Position numbers and translations under genes: made by a program. Shown piece by piece: positions 40,858 through 48,520 of a stretch of 64,000 nt of DNA (position 1 is its first letter; each line of letters opens with the position of its first letter). The stretch lies in the NCBI RefSeq assembly GCF_003334385.1, contig NZ_QOWN01000001.1; one strand, given 5' to 3'. The stretch comes from Escherichia coli. Its GTDB lineage: Bacteria > Pseudomonadota > Gammaproteobacteria > Enterobacterales > Enterobacteriaceae. Under the pieces are notes generated by a model. That model saw only the letters and a list, made by a program, of their open reading frames with translations. It was not told the origin of the DNA and searched no databases.

Positions 40858-42042
40858 CTAAATATCTTTAATAAACAGCAGGCAAATCATCGCAATACCC
40901 AACATCCCTATCGCCAGCCAGAACAACGCATGGTAGCTCCAGATTTCAACCATAATTCCGTCAACAGAGCCGGCGATAATCCAGCCGACGCGTGAAGTAT
41001 TTGCATATAACGTTGTCGCAGAGCCTATTTTTTCAGGCATCAAGTCCTGAAAATAAAGCATGCCGATACCACAGAGAATACCAAGGAAGATGGCATTAAG
41101 AATTTGCAATTCCAGCTCAACCGCCGGAGTCGTCGCCATGAGTACGCTGGCGTAAAAACACATTCCACTCACGATAGCAATGAGCATTAATAGTCGCTTG
41201 CCAATACGTTTCATGTAATAGCCTGCGATTAACATCATCGGAATTTCCAGACCGGCAGCGATACCAATCATTTCTCCAGCCAGTTTATCGGTTAGATGCA
41301 GTTCATCAATAATAAATAGCGGCATATTTATCATGTAGAGATTATTCGCCGCCCACATCATTGAACAGACCACAAAAAGTAGCCGCGTATCCCGCTTCCT
41401 GTGGGTGGAGGGTAAAATTTCTACGGGTTGGGTAACGACAGGAATATTTCTTTGTATTGATGGCAAAAACAACCAGACTATCAGTCCGCAAACAACAAAT
41501 GCGATGGCAGCGGTGAGATACATCACTTTAAAACTAAATCCCATTGCCAGTTCATAAGCGAGCGGTGGCCCGATAACCCAGGCAAGCGAGATCTGAGCAC
41601 GTAAAAATGTACTGAACATGACCGTCTCACGGCCTGTTCTGTCGGCGTGTTCACGGGCGAGGGCGAACATTTGCGGGTTTGCGGTGGAAGCAAAACTACT
41701 CAGAAGTACGCCCGTTGAGAGGAGAATGAAGTAGTTGCGATTCCACGCAAAAAGCGTGCAGGCCAGCACTCCAAATAAGCAACATAGCAGAATCAGTAAC
41801 TTACGGTCGCCTTGTTTATCGGAGTGCCTTGCCAGAAATTGACTGACCAGAATTCCCATAATAGCGCTACCGGTGAAGAAAAAACCTACCATTATAGGAC
41901 GGGCTTTCAGTTCATCTGCGAGGAATATACTTAGGGTAGGAGTCTGAAGAGCGCCCGCAATACCCGTCAGAAAGGCGACAAGTAAAAATGCCGCGGCAGT
42001 GAGATCAAGTATTTTTGATGGAGTGGTAGCCGTTTTTTGCAT
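40858..42042 (-). CDS. setC: Sugar efflux transporter SetC (MFS)
   Basis: 394 aa MFS; in E. coli this gene sits immediately downstream of selC. Confidence 0.9.
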   Translation of the reverse strand: MQKTATTPSKILDLTAAAFLLVAFLTGIAGALQTPTLSIFLADELKARPIMVGFFFTGSAIMGILVSQFLARHSDKQGDRKLLILLCCLFGVLACTLFAWNRNYFILLSTGVLLSSFASTANPQMFALAREHADRTGRETVMFSTFLRAQISLAWVIGPPLAYELAMGFSFKVMYLTAAIAFVVCGLIVWLFLPSIQRNIPVVTQPVEILPSTHRKRDTRLLFVVCSMMWAANNLYMINMPLFIIDELHLTDKLAGEMIGIAAGLEIPMMLIAGYYMKRIGKRLLMLIAIVSGMCFYASVLMATTPAVELELQILNAIFLGILCGIGMLYFQDLMPEKIGSATTLYANTSRVGWIIAGSVDGIMVEIWSYHALFWLAIGMLGIAMICLLFIKDI

Positions 42043-42678
42043 TCTTCTGAATCACCGGGCGAAAAAATATAACTGAGTTACAAATAAGTACCAGTCGAAT
42101 GAGTATTGTATTAAGAATTTTTGAGTATCGCTGATACAACCAGAAAGCAATGCTAGCGCAATATTATAGGGCCAGCAATTGAGATTATTAGTAAAAGCAT
42201 GTTAAGAATTAATTACCGAATTTATATATTAATTATAGTAAGGCAATGAGCTATTTTTGATAGTAAAAATAAAACAAGTTGATTTGATATATTAAATGAA
42301 CAAATTAATCTTGATGGCAGTCTGATTATTGGTGAAGTTTATAGTCAGTTTTTTTCGCCAGCGGTTAAAGAAATAGAATAGTCGTATAAAAAAGGGTGTT
42401 CTGGGGCGAGTAAAACAACATCTTCACCTTAATGGCGATACAGTTGGCTGAGAGTCAGCAGGGGGGCAAATCACCTGCAAATAAACACGGCGCATACTGG
42501 CGTGAATATCGCGGATGCGTTCGAGGACAGAAGAACCGACAGGCGGATTCTTCAGCCGCTCATCGTCCATCACAAAACCTTAGACCAGGTATTCCTGAAG
42601 CCGATTGAATATTGAGCAGTAGAAAATATCTGGATTGACAGTATTACAAGGGGTTGGAGAACGTCAGGAGAGGCATTT

Positions 42679-42702
42679 TGGCGGAAGATCACAGGAGTCG
42701 AA
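42679..42702 (-). other. selC: 3'-terminal 24 nt of tRNA-Sec (selC): attachment-site core marking the island boundary; the rest of the tRNA is not in the window
   Basis: tggcggaagatcacaggagtcgaa is the reverse complement of the recalled selC 3' end (TTCGACTCCTGTGATCTTCCGCCA); the sequence then diverges into AT-rich foreign DNA. Confidence 0.8.
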
Positions 42703-42834: not shown

Positions 42835-43680
42835 CTATTGTGAAGGTAACATTTCCGGATAGTGTCTGGCTATAATATCATTTAGCCGATCAACCAGTTC
42901 TGGTTTCCTGAACGTGATGTGCGCGGAGCCCTTCTTAAAGTATCTGATGCTGAACATTTCATCTTCATAGCACTCTTTACCCTGAACAGACCGGATGTGC
43001 TCATCCAGATGAATAGTGATGTTTTCCCGGTTGTCGGGGATCGGTTTGCCGCTGAACAGATGCAGCATTCTTTACAGGTCGGCAAGTCGATCGGCCTGTG
43101 GGCCGTTGTTCAGATGAAATCCCCATCTGTCCCACCTCACCAGATTGTTGACGATAATTTTACTGCCAAATTTACAGGGTGAATTGTTTTTGTAATTCCA
43201 GCTCAGTCCCCTGAAAACATTAATTACCCCTCGCTCAAACACCTCATCCTTATTCTGGTGCAGTTGTTCAAATGTGCTCAGAATGTTCGCTTCACTGATT
43301 TCCGGAAAATTATCGTACTCCAGTGACCGGTACCATGTATCACGGGCCTGCGCATCCATTAATGACAGCATCCCGGAACGTTGCATCAGGTCACGCCAGA
43401 TTTCGCGGTCAAGGTTGCGGGTGATGGCTTTCATTGCTGTTTCAGGTTTCTCCATGAGCCAGCATCCGCAGCGAAAATTCTGTTTCATCGCCCAGTCCCG
43501 TGCGCTTTTACCACCAATGCTTTTTGTCAGTACTGAGATTTCAGTCAGTTGCCGGATAAGCGTTTCGGTTTGTTGCAGTGCTGCATTCCGTACCGTCACA
43601 ACGTGTCGGATACTGGTGGAGCAGATAACGTCCGTATTCCCGGTGACCACTTCCGGATGGGAGATTGTGATGTTTGACAT
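42835..43680 (-). pseudogene. Conserved island protein (possibly DUF4942 family) interrupted by an in-frame TAA
   Basis: ORFs 43072-43680 and 42835-43068 are in the same frame, separated only by TAA (43072-43074) and one codon; together about 281 codons. Confidence 0.6.
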
Positions 43681-43764
43681 TATCGGTTTCCCTTTTGGTT
43701 TATAAACGAAAACGCCAGCCGTATTCAGGCTGGCGTCAGTGGAATGAAGTCTGGTGAGTAAGGC

Positions 43765-44007
43765 TCACCGGTTCTGTTGCAGAAGCTGCAGTTGGCGCAG
43801 GGTATGGATATCCTCCCTCGCCTGTTCAATGCAGGGCAGCAGTGCTGCCGAATCCGTTTTATCCTCATCGTTGTCAAAGATAATTCCCGATTCGCAGTCG
43901 ATATTGTCCTGCAGCCACGCAATCAGAATATCCAGTGCTGTTTCCGTGGTTAATGATTTCATGTTGTTCCTGGTTACCAGTTGAAAGTGGGTAAACCCGG
44001 CAGGCAT
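43765..44007 (-). CDS. Small hypothetical protein (CP4-type island)
   Basis: 80-aa ORF downstream of the toxin module; acidic and coding-like; no function assignable. Confidence 0.4.
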   Translation of the reverse strand: MPAGFTHFQLVTRNNMKSLTTETALDILIAWLQDNIDCESGIIFDNDEDKTDSAALLPCIEQAREDIHTLRQLQLLQQNR

Positions 44008-44462
44008 TCAGCGCTGGCATCCAGATGAATGAGACTGACGCCATAACGTCGGGTAAGTGTGACAACCAGACAACGGAACGTTTTTGACAGGCCCAGGCGC
44101 TTAAGCCGCAGAACCGGGTATGACCACGCATCGGTACGTAACAGATAGCCGCTGCCTGTAAAATGAATCCATTCTGATTCGCCGTCGTCATTAGTCTGGT
44201 GTGACAGCGAGTACAGCCAGGCGTTGTCCGTTTCCGTGATATGTGCGGTGCTGCAACGTATGCAGGTAAGGGTTGTTAACGGTGGTGGTGTACTGGTTGC
44301 GTGTTGGTCGGATTTATCGACCACGCGGAGTAAATAACCGTTTTCAGAGACCTTGTTAATCAGTTCACTGAGATTAACACCATCGACGTCAACGACAATG
44401 CGCCCCATGTTCAGTGCCTGCACGTTAACGCTGTCGGCTTCCAGCGTCAGGGCCAGTTTCAT
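43974..44462 (-). CDS. Hypothetical protein downstream of CbtA (YeeW-like position)
   Basis: 162 aa; start overlaps the cbtA-like stop (ATGA); positional analogue of yeeW in CP4-44. Confidence 0.5.
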
Positions 44463-44836
44463 TGTTTTGCCTCCGGATGCTTGCCCTGGGTAATGTTATT
44501 TACCATTCTGTAATTGTTCCGGGTCATCAGGCCGGTTGCCCTGCGAGCCCGGAGAATATCAATGCTGTTGATTAACTGCGACGGGGCTCCTGCGCTGAAT
44601 CCCGGCTGGTCGGTACGTACCAGCGCGTATTTTTCAACGAGAAAGTTCACCGCGTCACACAGTGAAATCCCTGCCTCAATATGCTGCTCAATCACACGTT
44701 CATCAGCGAACGGTGTGTCATTCAGCGTGAGGCCATAGTGCTGGTCCAGCAGTCGGGTGAGCAGTGTCTGCCAGATGGTGACGGGAGACGGGCAGCCCGA
44801 TGCCTCCCGTACGTGAGTGTCGGGTAATGTATTCAT
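44459..44836 (-). CDS. CbtA/YeeV/YkfI-family type IV toxin
   Basis: From MNTLPDTH, 125 aa; strong similarity to recalled YeeV ([52 protein letters not shown]). Confidence 0.85.
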
Positions 44837-44882
44837 CTTAAGTTCTCTGTAACAGGTGGTGATAAAGGGGAGATATCCGGGG

Positions 44883-45320
44883 TTATACGGTGATTGCGGG
44901 CGCTGCCGGTGTCGGATAAACAGCCAGATAAACGTAACCACAACTGCCAAGGGTATCGGCTTCGCAGGTCAGCCCTTTCGCATACAGTGTGATGGTATGC
45001 TGATGGCGGGGATTCAGTTCACCGCTGGTGAGCATGAGTTCCAGTTGTTTCATCAGCAGCGGAAAGGCCTGGTCCAGGTGGTATGCATCCGCGTCGCTGA
45101 ACCGGCCTCTGATACCGGCACGGTCGGCAAGGTAATGCAACCGGTTACCCTCCTGCACCAGACGTGCCCCGAAACAGGGCGTCACGGTGCAGGGCAGCCC
45201 CCACCAGGGGCGGTCGTGATTGTCGTCGGGATGCGTTGTCCCGGGCAGTGTGTCTGACACGATAAAGTCCTCACAGAAATCAGTTAAGAATGGTTCGATG
45301 GTGGCGATAATTCGGCTCAT
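44883..45320 (-). CDS. CbeA/YeeU/YafW-family antitoxin
   Basis: Contains [49 protein letters not shown]; the true start may be the internal GTG (VSDTLPG), giving about 124 aa. Confidence 0.85.
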
Positions 45321-45338
45321 CAGAATGCCCTTCCTGAC

Positions 45339-45560
45339 TCAGTTCAGGGTGACGCTCATCAGCCGGACATACGGGCCAAAACTGTCTTTACGGCGTTCTG
45401 CAAACACAGCCAGCACACCGGGAATATCCTGCACTTCACGACCGGTATACGCTTCAGTGCTGCCGTGCCAGCGGTATTTGCCGGTACAGAACGGAAAAAG
45501 ACGGGATGCCGGATGTTGTTGGTGAATACGCATGGCTTCACCACGGGTGATGATTTTCAT
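45339..45560 (-). CDS. DUF987-family protein (YeeT/YkfH-like)
   Basis: 73 aa MKIITRGEAMRIHQQHPASRLFPFCTGKYRWHGS...; canonical position upstream of the TA pair. Confidence 0.8.
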   Translation of the reverse strand: MKIITRGEAMRIHQQHPASRLFPFCTGKYRWHGSTEAYTGREVQDIPGVLAVFAERRKDSFGPYVRLMSVTLN

Positions 45561-45628
45561 AGTGTGATACCTCTGAAGACAGAAGATAAAAGCGAAAACT
45601 GGTATGATGTGGTTGTAACGGTGACGGG

Positions 45629-46105
45629 TTAAAGCAGACCGTGTTCCGCAAAGGAGAAAACCTGGCTGCCACCGACTATCAGATGGTCCGGCACCCGGAT
45701 ATCCACCAGGCCCAGTGCCTGTACCAGACGTTCCGTGATAAGGCGGTCTGCCTTGCTGGGTGTGACTTCACCGGACGGGTGATTGTGTGCCAGCACCACA
45801 GCAGCGGCATTGTGATACAGGGCGCGTTTAATCACTTCCCGGGGATGGACTTCCGTGCGGTTGATGGTGCCGGTGAAGAGGGTTTCACCGGCAATCAGCT
45901 TATTCTGGTTGTTCAGATACAGCACCCGGAATTCTTCACGCTCCAGTCCCGCCATGTTCAGAATCAGCCATTCCCGTGCCGCACGGGTGGAGGTGAAGGC
46001 CACACCGGGTTCATGAAGATGGCGGTCCAGGGTTTTCAGGGCCCGCTGAATGAGGCTGCGCTCGCCGGGCGTCATCTCTCCTGGCAGAAAGGAAAGCTGT
46101 TGCAT
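45629..46105 (-). CDS. RadC-like JAB-domain protein (YeeS/YkfG/YfjY-like)
   Basis: 158 aa with JAMM-like motif (HNHPSGEVTPSKAD). Confidence 0.85.
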   Translation of the reverse strand: MQQLSFLPGEMTPGERSLIQRALKTLDRHLHEPGVAFTSTRAAREWLILNMAGLEREEFRVLYLNNQNKLIAGETLFTGTINRTEVHPREVIKRALYHNAAAVVLAHNHPSGEVTPSKADRLITERLVQALGLVDIRVPDHLIVGGSQVFSFAEHGLL

Positions 46106-46119
46106 TGTTCCAGCCCCTT

Positions 46120-46605
46120 TCAGTCAATGATGCGCATAATGGCGTTGCATTCCGGATGCTGCAGGGCGTAGTCCCGCAGACGGTAATAATGAACCGTCAT
46201 GGCATAACACTCCGTGCGACAGGCATGATGACTGTACGTCATCAGACAGGCAGCAATGCCGGCGGCTTCCGGGCTCATTTCAGCACGGTTACCGTTCATG
46301 GCATTGAACAGTACCCATGTCTCGTCATCATCGTCATCCGGTTCGGGTGCCATAAATGCCCCGCCGTTGTTCAGGGTGTACAGATTCCAGATACCACCGC
46401 AGTAGTCTTCGCAAAGATGGTCCATCCAGCCGAAGACACGGGGTTCCAGGGTCACCCACTGTGGAATGAGGCCAAAATGCTGCGGCCAGAAGCTGATGCG
46501 CTGTTCATGAGGAACGAGAGTGGCAACCAGTTGAGGCTGGTCATTCTCTGAAGCTGTGACTACGGAAGCAGAAAGTGTACAGGTGTTCTGAGAAACAGTT
46601 TTCAT
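46120..46605 (-). CDS. Antirestriction protein (ArdB/KlcA family; YfjX/YafX-like)
   Basis: 161 aa, acidic stretch (EPDDDDDE); conserved position in CP4-type islands. Confidence 0.75.
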   Translation of the reverse strand: MKTVSQNTCTLSASVVTASENDQPQLVATLVPHEQRISFWPQHFGLIPQWVTLEPRVFGWMDHLCEDYCGGIWNLYTLNNGGAFMAPEPDDDDDETWVLFNAMNGNRAEMSPEAAGIAACLMTYSHHACRTECYAMTVHYYRLRDYALQHPECNAIMRIID

Positions 46606-46695: not shown

Positions 46696-47514
46696 TCAGC
46701 GCATGTTCTCCAGCAGCGTTTCTGTCATTACCCACAATGCGCGATTGAGCTTAATGTCCGTGTCGATGCTGTGAATGGCACGGGTGTGGATACGTTTTCC
46801 TTTAGCGCTGCGACCGGAAATCCCGCCTTTCAGCATATTCTCCTGGATGGTCTGATATGCGCTCCACAGGTCCTTACCGTAATCCTCCCGGCGTCGCGGC
46901 GTCAGAATGTCGGCGGTGGTGACGGGCTGATGTTCGTCACCATAACGGTAAGTCAGTGCCGCCTGTGCCAGCGCCTGGCGTGCCGGTGGCGGCAGAATCA
47001 GCGACTGCATGGCATCACGCTTTTCCTCAATCCGGTCAAACACGCCCACCACCTTGTAAGCCCCTTCAATGACTCTGTCCACCACATTTCCCCGGTGCGG
47101 AACACGCACTTCCCCCAGAGACTGACCACAGACGCATCCGTTCTGGCAGACGAACCTGAAGTAACCCGGCAGCATCTGGTAGCTGGAGGTACCGTCATGG
47201 GAGTTCAGCAGGATGATTTCAGGGACATGTTGTCCGTTTATCTCCCCGTCACGGCGCAGACGCAGCATGTGTTTGGTGTATCCCCGGCGGCCCGGGTCGC
47301 GCACACGGGTCTGGCAGGCGAAGAATGGCTGAAAACCTTCCCGCTGCAGGCTTTCCAGCACTGTGATGGTGGGGATCCAGGTATAGTTCTCGCTTCTGGA
47401 TGTGTGCTTATCTTCCCCGAATACGCTGGGGACGACCTGCATCAGTTCTTCACGAGTTAAGGGACGATCACGGCGTATCTGATTTACATGACCAAAACGA
47501 CTGGCTAATTGCAT
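46696..47514 (-). CDS. DUF932-family protein (YafZ/YfjQ-like)
   Basis: 272 aa; family and position typical of CP4-like elements. Confidence 0.75.
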   Translation of the reverse strand: MQLASRFGHVNQIRRDRPLTREELMQVVPSVFGEDKHTSRSENYTWIPTITVLESLQREGFQPFFACQTRVRDPGRRGYTKHMLRLRRDGEINGQHVPEIILLNSHDGTSSYQMLPGYFRFVCQNGCVCGQSLGEVRVPHRGNVVDRVIEGAYKVVGVFDRIEEKRDAMQSLILPPPARQALAQAALTYRYGDEHQPVTTADILTPRRREDYGKDLWSAYQTIQENMLKGGISGRSAKGKRIHTRAIHSIDTDIKLNRALWVMTETLLENMR

Positions 47515-47603
47515 ACTTTGCTCCTTATGAATGAGTTAGCGGTATAAATGAAAAGGCCGCGTCTCCCGGAGAAGACGCGGCCTGATGGATGAAATGAAGA
47601 CGT

Positions 47604-47837
47604 TTATTGCCTGAGAATTCCCTCACTGGCGAGATATGGATTTAGCTGTTTTCCGGCATCAGGTTCAAAATTCCAGCACCGCCAGCGTAGCTGCCCTTCA
47701 GCATTGTGGATAACCAGCCGGAAATGCGTTCCCTGATCATCTTCAATAAGCACATTGCGGTAAGCTGTTGTGACAGCCATCGCCTGTTCGCGTGAGAAAG
47801 GGCCTTCGGGCAATAAAACAGGGTGACAGTCCGACAT
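47604..47837 (-). CDS. DUF905-family protein (YkfF-like)
   Basis: 77 aa; motif [12 protein letters not shown]...WNFEP. Confidence 0.7.
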
Positions 47838-47842
47838 ACCGG

Positions 47843-48520
47843 CTATTTTCCGATAAATTCAACGCTGGCACCGGTGGCATTACCGTCAGCACCAACCGTG
47901 ACGGTCACTTTGTCGTACGCACGGTCTTCAGGATTGAACACTTCAAACTCAACCTTATTGCCTTTTACTTCGTAAGAGCCAAAATCAGCGGTTTCTGTTG
48001 TTTCCTCGTCATATTCCCGGGCGTATGCCTGCCGGGCAGCCTGCAGGACGGAATCTTTATTAATGGCGGGTGTCTGTTTCGGGGAAAAACCAGCAAGTGA
48101 TGTGACAAATTTCGGACAGACCTTCAGCATATCACCGCGGGTGAATTCCATTCGTACACCAAATGCCTGTAAAACGGACACATCACGCTCTGCTATGGAG
48201 TGAACGGCTTTTTTGACCATTTCCGGCGCCTGTCCGATTTCCACCTCAACAGCCCTGAATCCCGTCTGCTGATTACACATTTGTGATGTGGGGATCAGGT
48301 TACCGTTAATACTGATACGGCTGCCCAGGAGCGTCTGTACACCATTCGGGCATCCCTGCATCAGGCCGGTAATACCAATCGTGCCATTTTTCAGCATTAC
48401 CAGCGCCTGACCATCTTCCGTCATGGTCTGACACCAGCCGTTTTTGACAGCCCAGTTGCCGGCGGAGGCGGAGAATGATGCCACAGTGAATAGCAGGGGA
48501 AAAAGAGCTCTGGTATTCAT
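47843..48520 (-). CDS. Secreted/lipoprotein-like protein (YafY/YfjS-like)
   Basis: ORF 47843-48625; likely start [21 protein letters not shown] (signal peptide), about 225 aa. Confidence 0.6.

Follow-up and report, generated by a model that had tools for sequence, protein, structure and literature searches.

Does the minus strand of positions 44459-45320 in this 64,000-nt stretch of Escherichia coli DNA (hereafter, the window) encode an intact CbtA/CbeA-type toxin-antitoxin (TA) pair inside a complete CP4-like backbone, and may that pair stabilise the island that carries it, as a sequence-only reading had proposed? We identified two intact ORFs in this interval, without internal stops, in agreement with that reading. 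Based on homology and gene context, they are very probably an intact toxin-antitoxin pair of the type IV family CbtA/CbeA (YeeV/YeeU), namely a CP4-44-type paralogue located within the conserved distal module of a PAI I(APEC-O1)-like ireA island integrated at selC. The completeness of the backbone and the stabilisation of the island fared less well, and the start codon of the antitoxin had to be moved.

Identity and gene layout of the pair

The cbtA-type toxin gene (44459..44836, minus strand) starts at an ATG preceded by what reads as a weak Shine-Dalgarno (SD) sequence, and encodes exactly the 125-aa product that had been proposed, with Cys at position 15 and Phe at position 65 (F65). Its protein matches the whole Pfam CbtA_toxin model (PF06755, E 4.5e-62, model positions 1-112 of 112) and is 100% identical to RefSeq WP_001094436.1 ('TA system toxin CbtA family protein') of E. 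coli ATCC 11775. Directly upstream on the same strand lies the cbeA-type antitoxin gene (44883..45260), also of 125 aa, which starts at a GTG with a strong SD sequence, GAGGA, and a 7-nt spacer. The antitoxin matches Pfam CbeA_antitoxin (PF06154, E 1.1e-54, model positions 1-100 of 101) and is 100% identical to WP_015953067.1 ('cbeA'), likewise of ATCC 11775. The family assignment of the sequence-only reading is borne out by these matches, as is its order of antitoxin before toxin, the two genes being separated by a spacer of 46 nt (44837..44882, minus strand). The antitoxin sequence matches the solved structures PDB 2INW (E 7e-84) and 2H28 (YeeU; E 2e-78), and the search of the toxin sequence against solved structures gave no relative (best E = 1). 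All 125 antitoxin residues align with 2INW, a Shigella flexneri 'putative structural protein' of the YeeU family, including the AAPA-TV tail, with six substitutions.

Both genes evolve under purifying selection, with dN/dS values against the K-12 and AMSCJX03 copies of 0.11-0.26 (toxin) and 0.18-0.20 (antitoxin). A search for a second copy of the pair within the window found none. In NCBIfam, no model matched the toxin, the antitoxin or the DUF5983, DUF957, DUF987, antirestriction, DUF932 and DUF905 proteins of the module, RadC alone being matched. The PADLOC-DB 2.0 defence models returned no family for the toxin, the antitoxin or the DUF5983 protein, so their assignment to a known defence system is unsupported.

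Among the three K-12 paralogues, the toxin is closest to CbtA of CP4-44 (84.7% identity), followed by YpjF of CP4-57 (65%) and YkfI of CP4-6 (59%); the antitoxin follows the same order, with 91.8% identity to CbeA (CP4-44), 67% to YfjZ (CP4-57) and 63% to YafW (CP4-6). The pair shares with the CP4-44 CbtA/CbeA (YeeV/YeeU) system its Pfam families, the order antitoxin, toxin and DUF5983/YeeW, the upstream RadC-like YeeS and DUF987 YeeT, the SD and GTG of the antitoxin start, and F65 of the toxin. Nevertheless, the N-terminal residues 2-15 of the toxin have diverged, including Cys15 here versus Arg15 in K-12; the antitoxin ends in ...TPAAPAITV instead of ...TPEMKN; the two genes are 46 nt apart, against 88 nt in K-12; a full-length DUF5983 gene (162 aa) is present, whereas K-12 YeeW has 64 aa; and the island lies at selC and, unlike CP4-44, carries neither Ag43 nor YeeR. 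The CP4-6 (YkfI/YafW) and CP4-57 (YpjF/YfjZ) systems resemble the pair in their families, gene order, RadC and DUF987 neighbours, and toxin Cys15 and F65, but their proteins are shorter (105-113 aa) and DUF932 directly follows the GTPase gene there.

Closer relatives are abundant. The region 44300-45700 is 99.9% identical to ATCC 11775, the sole difference in 1401 nt being an intergenic mismatch at 45600. ATCC 11775 differs in that its module adjoins kps capsule genes instead of setC. Proteins identical to WP_001094436.1 and WP_015953067.1 occur in the extraintestinal pathogenic E. coli (ExPEC) islands of ATCC 11775, APEC O1, S88, ST131 and others. Homologous modules are present in ~90% of complete E. 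coli genomes (4936 of 5426), with a median of 3 sites in each and with gene order and neighbours conserved as in CP4-44, CP4-6 and CP4-57; 297 records have a best match of 99% identity or more. A 2023 survey reported a highly variable copy number of CbtA_toxin, up to 8 in ST73, and a DUF5983 partner regularly located downstream (PMC10790755). The pair is thus already known and ordinary, its identical proteins being catalogued in many genomes.

The mechanical ORF of the antitoxin is longer than the gene described above: it begins at an ATG at 45320 and spans 44883..45320, for 145 aa, with an in-frame upstream extension at 45261..45320 (minus strand). The Pfam CbeA domain begins only at residue 38 of this 145-aa form, and RefSeq annotates identical DNA from the GTG at 45260, for 125 aa. 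We aligned the DUF987-antitoxin interval of the window, K-12, AMSCJX03, ATCC 11775 and 18 IMG/VR loci. The sequence RAGGAyTTTATC-GTG-TCA-GAC was invariant in all aligned CbeA-type copies, including five with unrelated upstream DNA, and 16 aligned copies all retain the SD and GTG; the characterised K-12 gene, cbeA, likewise begins at the GTG of this conserved element. The upstream ATG, located 18 nt past the DUF987 stop (window interval 45261-45338), opens a short reading frame that is fused in frame to cbeA here. Among the aligned copies it is in frame, through a 1-nt indel, only in the window, AMSCJX03 and the locus L009. In K-12 and 8 other copies the frame is shifted and closed by stops, so that a separate 16-codon upstream ORF remains (MSRIIATTGPFLADFL in K-12), which ends inside the SD sequence of the cbeA GTG.

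We therefore rejected a 145-aa antitoxin starting at the ATG at 45320 as the conserved gene, its frame being broken in K-12 and 8 copies and replaced by unrelated DNA in the 5 others that keep the SD and GTG. Because the SD and GTG are invariant while the upstream ATG frame is broken or absent elsewhere, the antitoxin gene is, as read from the alignment, 44883..45260, and its 60-nt extension lacks conservation as coding sequence. Of the interval originally given for the pair, the toxin end at 44459 stands, and the right end at 45320, taken from the ATG of the longest ORF, lies 60 nt too far upstream of the conserved GTG at 45260.

The surrounding module and the selC island

All genes discussed in this paragraph lie on the minus strand. 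Upstream of the antitoxin we identified a DUF987 gene (45339..45560; YeeT homologue, 73 aa, identical to WP_000692312.1; phrog_14887, E 1e-37), a RadC-like JAB domain gene (45629..46105; YeeS/LfgB homologue, 158 aa, identical to WP_001186756.1; TIGR00608 radc at 149 bits, cut-off 133.85), an antirestriction protein gene (46120..46605; 161 aa, identical to WP_000860054.1; phrog_10132 anti-restriction, E 4.7e-62) and a DUF932 gene (46696..47514; 272 aa, 4 aa differences from the homologous RefSeq CDS; phrog_12094, E 2e-127). These are preceded by a DUF905 gene (47604..47837; 77 aa), a hypothetical gene (47843..48520), a gene for an HTH-WYL transcriptional regulator (48668..49348; YfjR-like, 226 aa; PADLOC WYL models at E 2e-17 and 1.7e-5, Pfam HTH_11 at 1.2e-4 and WYL at 9.8e-4) and a gene of the GTPase family (49551..50435; YeeP/YkfA/YfjP-like, 294 aa, identical to WP_000010416.1 'GTPase family protein'). 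The minus-strand order is then GTPase, HTH-WYL, hypothetical, DUF905, DUF932, antirestriction, RadC/JAB, DUF987, CbeA, CbtA, DUF5983, DUF957 and DUF4942, which is the CP4-type order of the AMSCJX03, ATCC 11775 and UPEC132 islands. The upstream order from DUF987 to GTPase given by the sequence-only reading was recovered in full, with the addition of the hypothetical gene between DUF905 and the WYL regulator.

In K-12 CP4-57 (locus L006), the homologues of the antirestriction and RadC/JAB genes at 45629-46605 are now named lfgA and lfgB. LfgB is reportedly a protease that cleaves the antitoxin MqsA (PMC10846083), which raises the speculative idea that antitoxins might also be substrates of the RadC-like neighbour.

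Downstream of the toxin, the DUF5983 gene (43974..44462, minus strand) encodes a full-length YeeW homologue of 162 aa, identical to WP_000761714.1, with matches to both Pfam DUF5983_N (1.4e-31) and the C-terminal DUF5983 domain (6.6e-22). The TGA of the toxin overlaps the ATG of DUF5983 as ATGA at 44459-44462, and this overlap suggests that translation of the two genes may be coupled. A 2026 preprint placed AntiFam ANF00264 adjoining or fused with DUF5983 beside cbtA/cbeA, and speculated on a programmed frameshift. The DUF957 gene follows (43765..43962, minus strand; 65 aa, RefSeq annotation of the homologous CDS, 6 aa differences from ATCC 11775). The last member, DUF4942 (42835..43680, minus strand), is a pseudogene: codon 203 (43072-43074) is an in-frame TAA here and GAA in the intact AMSCJX03 and ATCC 11775 copies. 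UPEC132 carries the identical nonsense allele, which NCBI flags as an 'internal stop' pseudogene.

The pair belongs to a same-strand gene run from DUF932 to DUF957. A strong terminator-like hairpin of 13 pairs followed by T lies after DUF905 (47554-47583, minus strand), and a second strong one, of 10 pairs (7 G-C) with a T-rich tail, was found by the consensus scan after DUF957 (43711..43737, minus strand); together they could delimit a DUF932-DUF957 transcription unit. The consensus scan found no sigma-70-like promoter directly upstream of the pair, and our promoter and terminator scans, which use the consensus only, gave in total no more sites than were found in shuffled sequences. For both reasons, we infer the putative operon structure from spacing only.

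The island boundary was located by alignment to K-12. Positions 41900-42702, which run from setC through the final 24 nt of selC, are 100% identical to MG1655, and the distal boundary is marked by an attR-like repeat in which 24 nt of the selC 3' end recur (42679-42702, minus strand). The 803 bp to its left comprise the setC 5' end and a yicT/rhuM remnant. Neither ARAGORN nor Rfam detected selC or another tRNA gene within the window, and no integrase was found there either; the island extends past the right end. Its closest overall relative, the selC island of UPEC132, is 99.8% identical over 42669-64000 and differs by A97T in the toxin and in the replacement of setC. That island spans ~50 kb, contains ireA, pgtABCP, pap (papG-II) and tia, and has a tyrosine integrase next to tRNA-Sec at its end. 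The exact junction of the window together with the full-length island occurred in 0 of the 5426 complete genomes, and the best matches begin at 42669; APEC O1 is among the window matches, at 99.3%. The combination of pap, ireA, tia and pgt corresponds to PAI I of APEC O1, and we identify the island as a PAI I(APEC-O1)-like ireA island at selC.

Its cargo includes the IreA TonB-dependent siderophore receptor (55482-57530, plus strand) and an IbrA-like gene of the PAPS-reductase family (62730-63962, plus strand), whose UPEC132 counterpart is followed by a frameshifted IbrB-like gene; IreA and the IbrA-like protein are typical ExPEC pathogenicity-island content. Between them, at 57870-60137, an IS256-family transposase fragment (a 260-aa ORF; a frameshifted pseudogene in UPEC132) adjoins an IS3-family element, in which Rfam ALIL recognises the IS3 frameshift pseudoknot (59205-59321, 120.9 bits). 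An ORF for an OLD-family ATP-dependent nuclease (60296-61756, plus strand) starts at a TTG ~160 nt past the IS3 element, and its match to the PADLOC Old profile (578 positions) begins no earlier than position 139; the ORF may have been N-terminally truncated by the IS3 insertion. The description of the backbone as complete does not hold, considering the GAA>TAA change in DUF4942, the integrase/selC end beyond the window, and an interior with a frameshifted IS256 fragment, an IS3 element and an OLD-type ORF lacking the first ~138 profile positions.

Residues 15 and 65 and the predicted targets of the toxin

Heller et al. showed in 2017 that K-12 CbtA binds FtsZ and MreB independently (PMC5624674). 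In that work, F65S abolished FtsZ binding in CbtA, YkfI and YpjF; R15C in K-12 CbtA led to the loss of MreB binding, with FtsZ binding and toxicity kept; and the R15C/F65S double mutant was non-toxic. YkfI and YpjF have Cys15, yet they produced lemon-shaped cells; YpjF bound MreB in the two-hybrid assay, and the MreB interaction of both toxins in this assay was unaffected by C15R (PMC5624674). Regarding the antitoxin, the logic of type IV systems involves no toxin-antitoxin contact: CbeA binds FtsZ and MreB (Wen et al. 2017, PMC5371832).

The toxin of the window retains F65, the FtsZ determinant of K-12 CbtA, and has Cys at codon 15 (44792-44794), so the Arg15 that acts as MreB determinant in K-12 CbtA is absent. 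We counted both positions in 80 full-length cluster representatives from our database search: residue 15 is Cys in 54 and Arg in 18, and residue 65 is Phe in 79. Since Cys15 also occurs in YkfI, YpjF and 54 of the 80 representatives, it has no bearing on family membership; as an MreB-binding determinant, Arg15 is specific to K-12 CbtA and not family-wide.

Based on the characterised homologues, the 125-aa toxin would bind FtsZ through the conserved F65 surface, thereby blocking Z-ring assembly, and MreB-dependent elongation may be inhibited as well. The antitoxin, likewise of 125 aa, would offset the toxin by binding and bundling FtsZ and MreB polymers, instead of sequestering the toxin. We have good confidence in the predicted inhibition of FtsZ. 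The inhibition of MreB is uncertain, because position 15 is Cys and R15C removes MreB binding in K-12 CbtA.

In a rival reading, the Cys15 allele would be a toxin of division only, one that binds FtsZ and not MreB and gives rise to filaments instead of lemon-shaped cells. The CbtA-type background of the protein (85% identity to K-12 CbtA), where R15C alone abolishes MreB binding, argues for such a toxin (PMC5624674). Nevertheless, most of the family has Cys15 (54/80 representatives); YkfI and YpjF give lemon-shaped cells with this same residue, and the YpjF-MreB two-hybrid signal is unchanged by C15R (PMC5624674). Additionally, the N-terminal 15 residues differ from those of K-12 CbtA at many positions, a context that may compensate for the change. 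On balance, a division-only toxin seems rather unlikely, and we retain the reading of a predicted FtsZ inhibitor with an uncertain effect on MreB.

A different departure from the K-12 scheme could come from the neighbouring gene. If DUF5983 modulates the toxin, what is called a pair would really be a three-gene system, which K-12, with its truncated YeeW, could not have revealed. We consider it distinctly improbable that either of two proposals holds, namely that the widespread Cys15 CbtA-type allele is a natural FtsZ-only toxin or that DUF5983 is a coupled third component modulating the toxin.

Island stabilisation and the role of the pair

The proposal that the pair may stabilise the island amounts to an addiction module: the toxin would outlast the antitoxin, and cells that lose the island would be killed or arrested. 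Consistent with this role, both genes are intact and evolve under purifying selection, the pair occupies one end of a mobile island delimited by the selC repeat, and stabilisation by TA systems has been documented for other integrated elements (cited in PMC5371832). What is established for the type IV family in K-12 points the other way. It is possible to delete the antitoxin genes, the operon lacks autoregulation, and any one of the three antitoxins suffices to neutralise all three toxins (PMC5371832). With a median of 3 modules per E. coli genome, the antitoxin of another copy would protect the cells that lose the island; moreover, a labile-antitoxin mechanism for CbeA is not reported in the literature cited here. 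Given the deletable, cross-neutralising antitoxins, the lack of autoregulation and the multi-copy distribution, classical addiction, and hence stabilisation of the island by this means, is unlikely.

At the other extreme, the pair could be a silent hitch-hiker, intact only through the recent spread of the island and neither expressed nor functional in its host. The low-level expression of the K-12 paralogues (PMC5371832), the adjacent DUF4942 gene that is already a pseudogene, and the scan, which showed no clear promoter, are all compatible with silence. However, dN/dS is well below 1 in comparisons with copies that differ at 13-39% of synonymous sites, and even diverged copies have kept the SD sequences and the start codons. 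Deletion of toxin or antitoxin genes in K-12 also has phenotypes, namely oxidative-stress resistance and early biofilm formation (PMC5371832). We regard a silent pair as very unlikely. Between these extremes, the biological role of the pair is most likely low-level, stress-linked or neutral, like that reported of the K-12 paralogues, rather than strict addiction.

Taken by itself, the pair matters little: the allele is already catalogued, and its TA family was characterised between 2003 and 2017 and occurs in ~90% of the complete E. coli genomes. What is of use is the set of corrections, namely that the antitoxin starts at the conserved GTG, that the backbone is incomplete, and that stabilisation is a weak proposal for a type IV family that is multi-copy and cross-neutralising. 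If it were true that Cys15 or a coupled DUF5983 alters target choice or regulation, this would open no new field, and it would refine our picture of a module that is very common in ExPEC islands.
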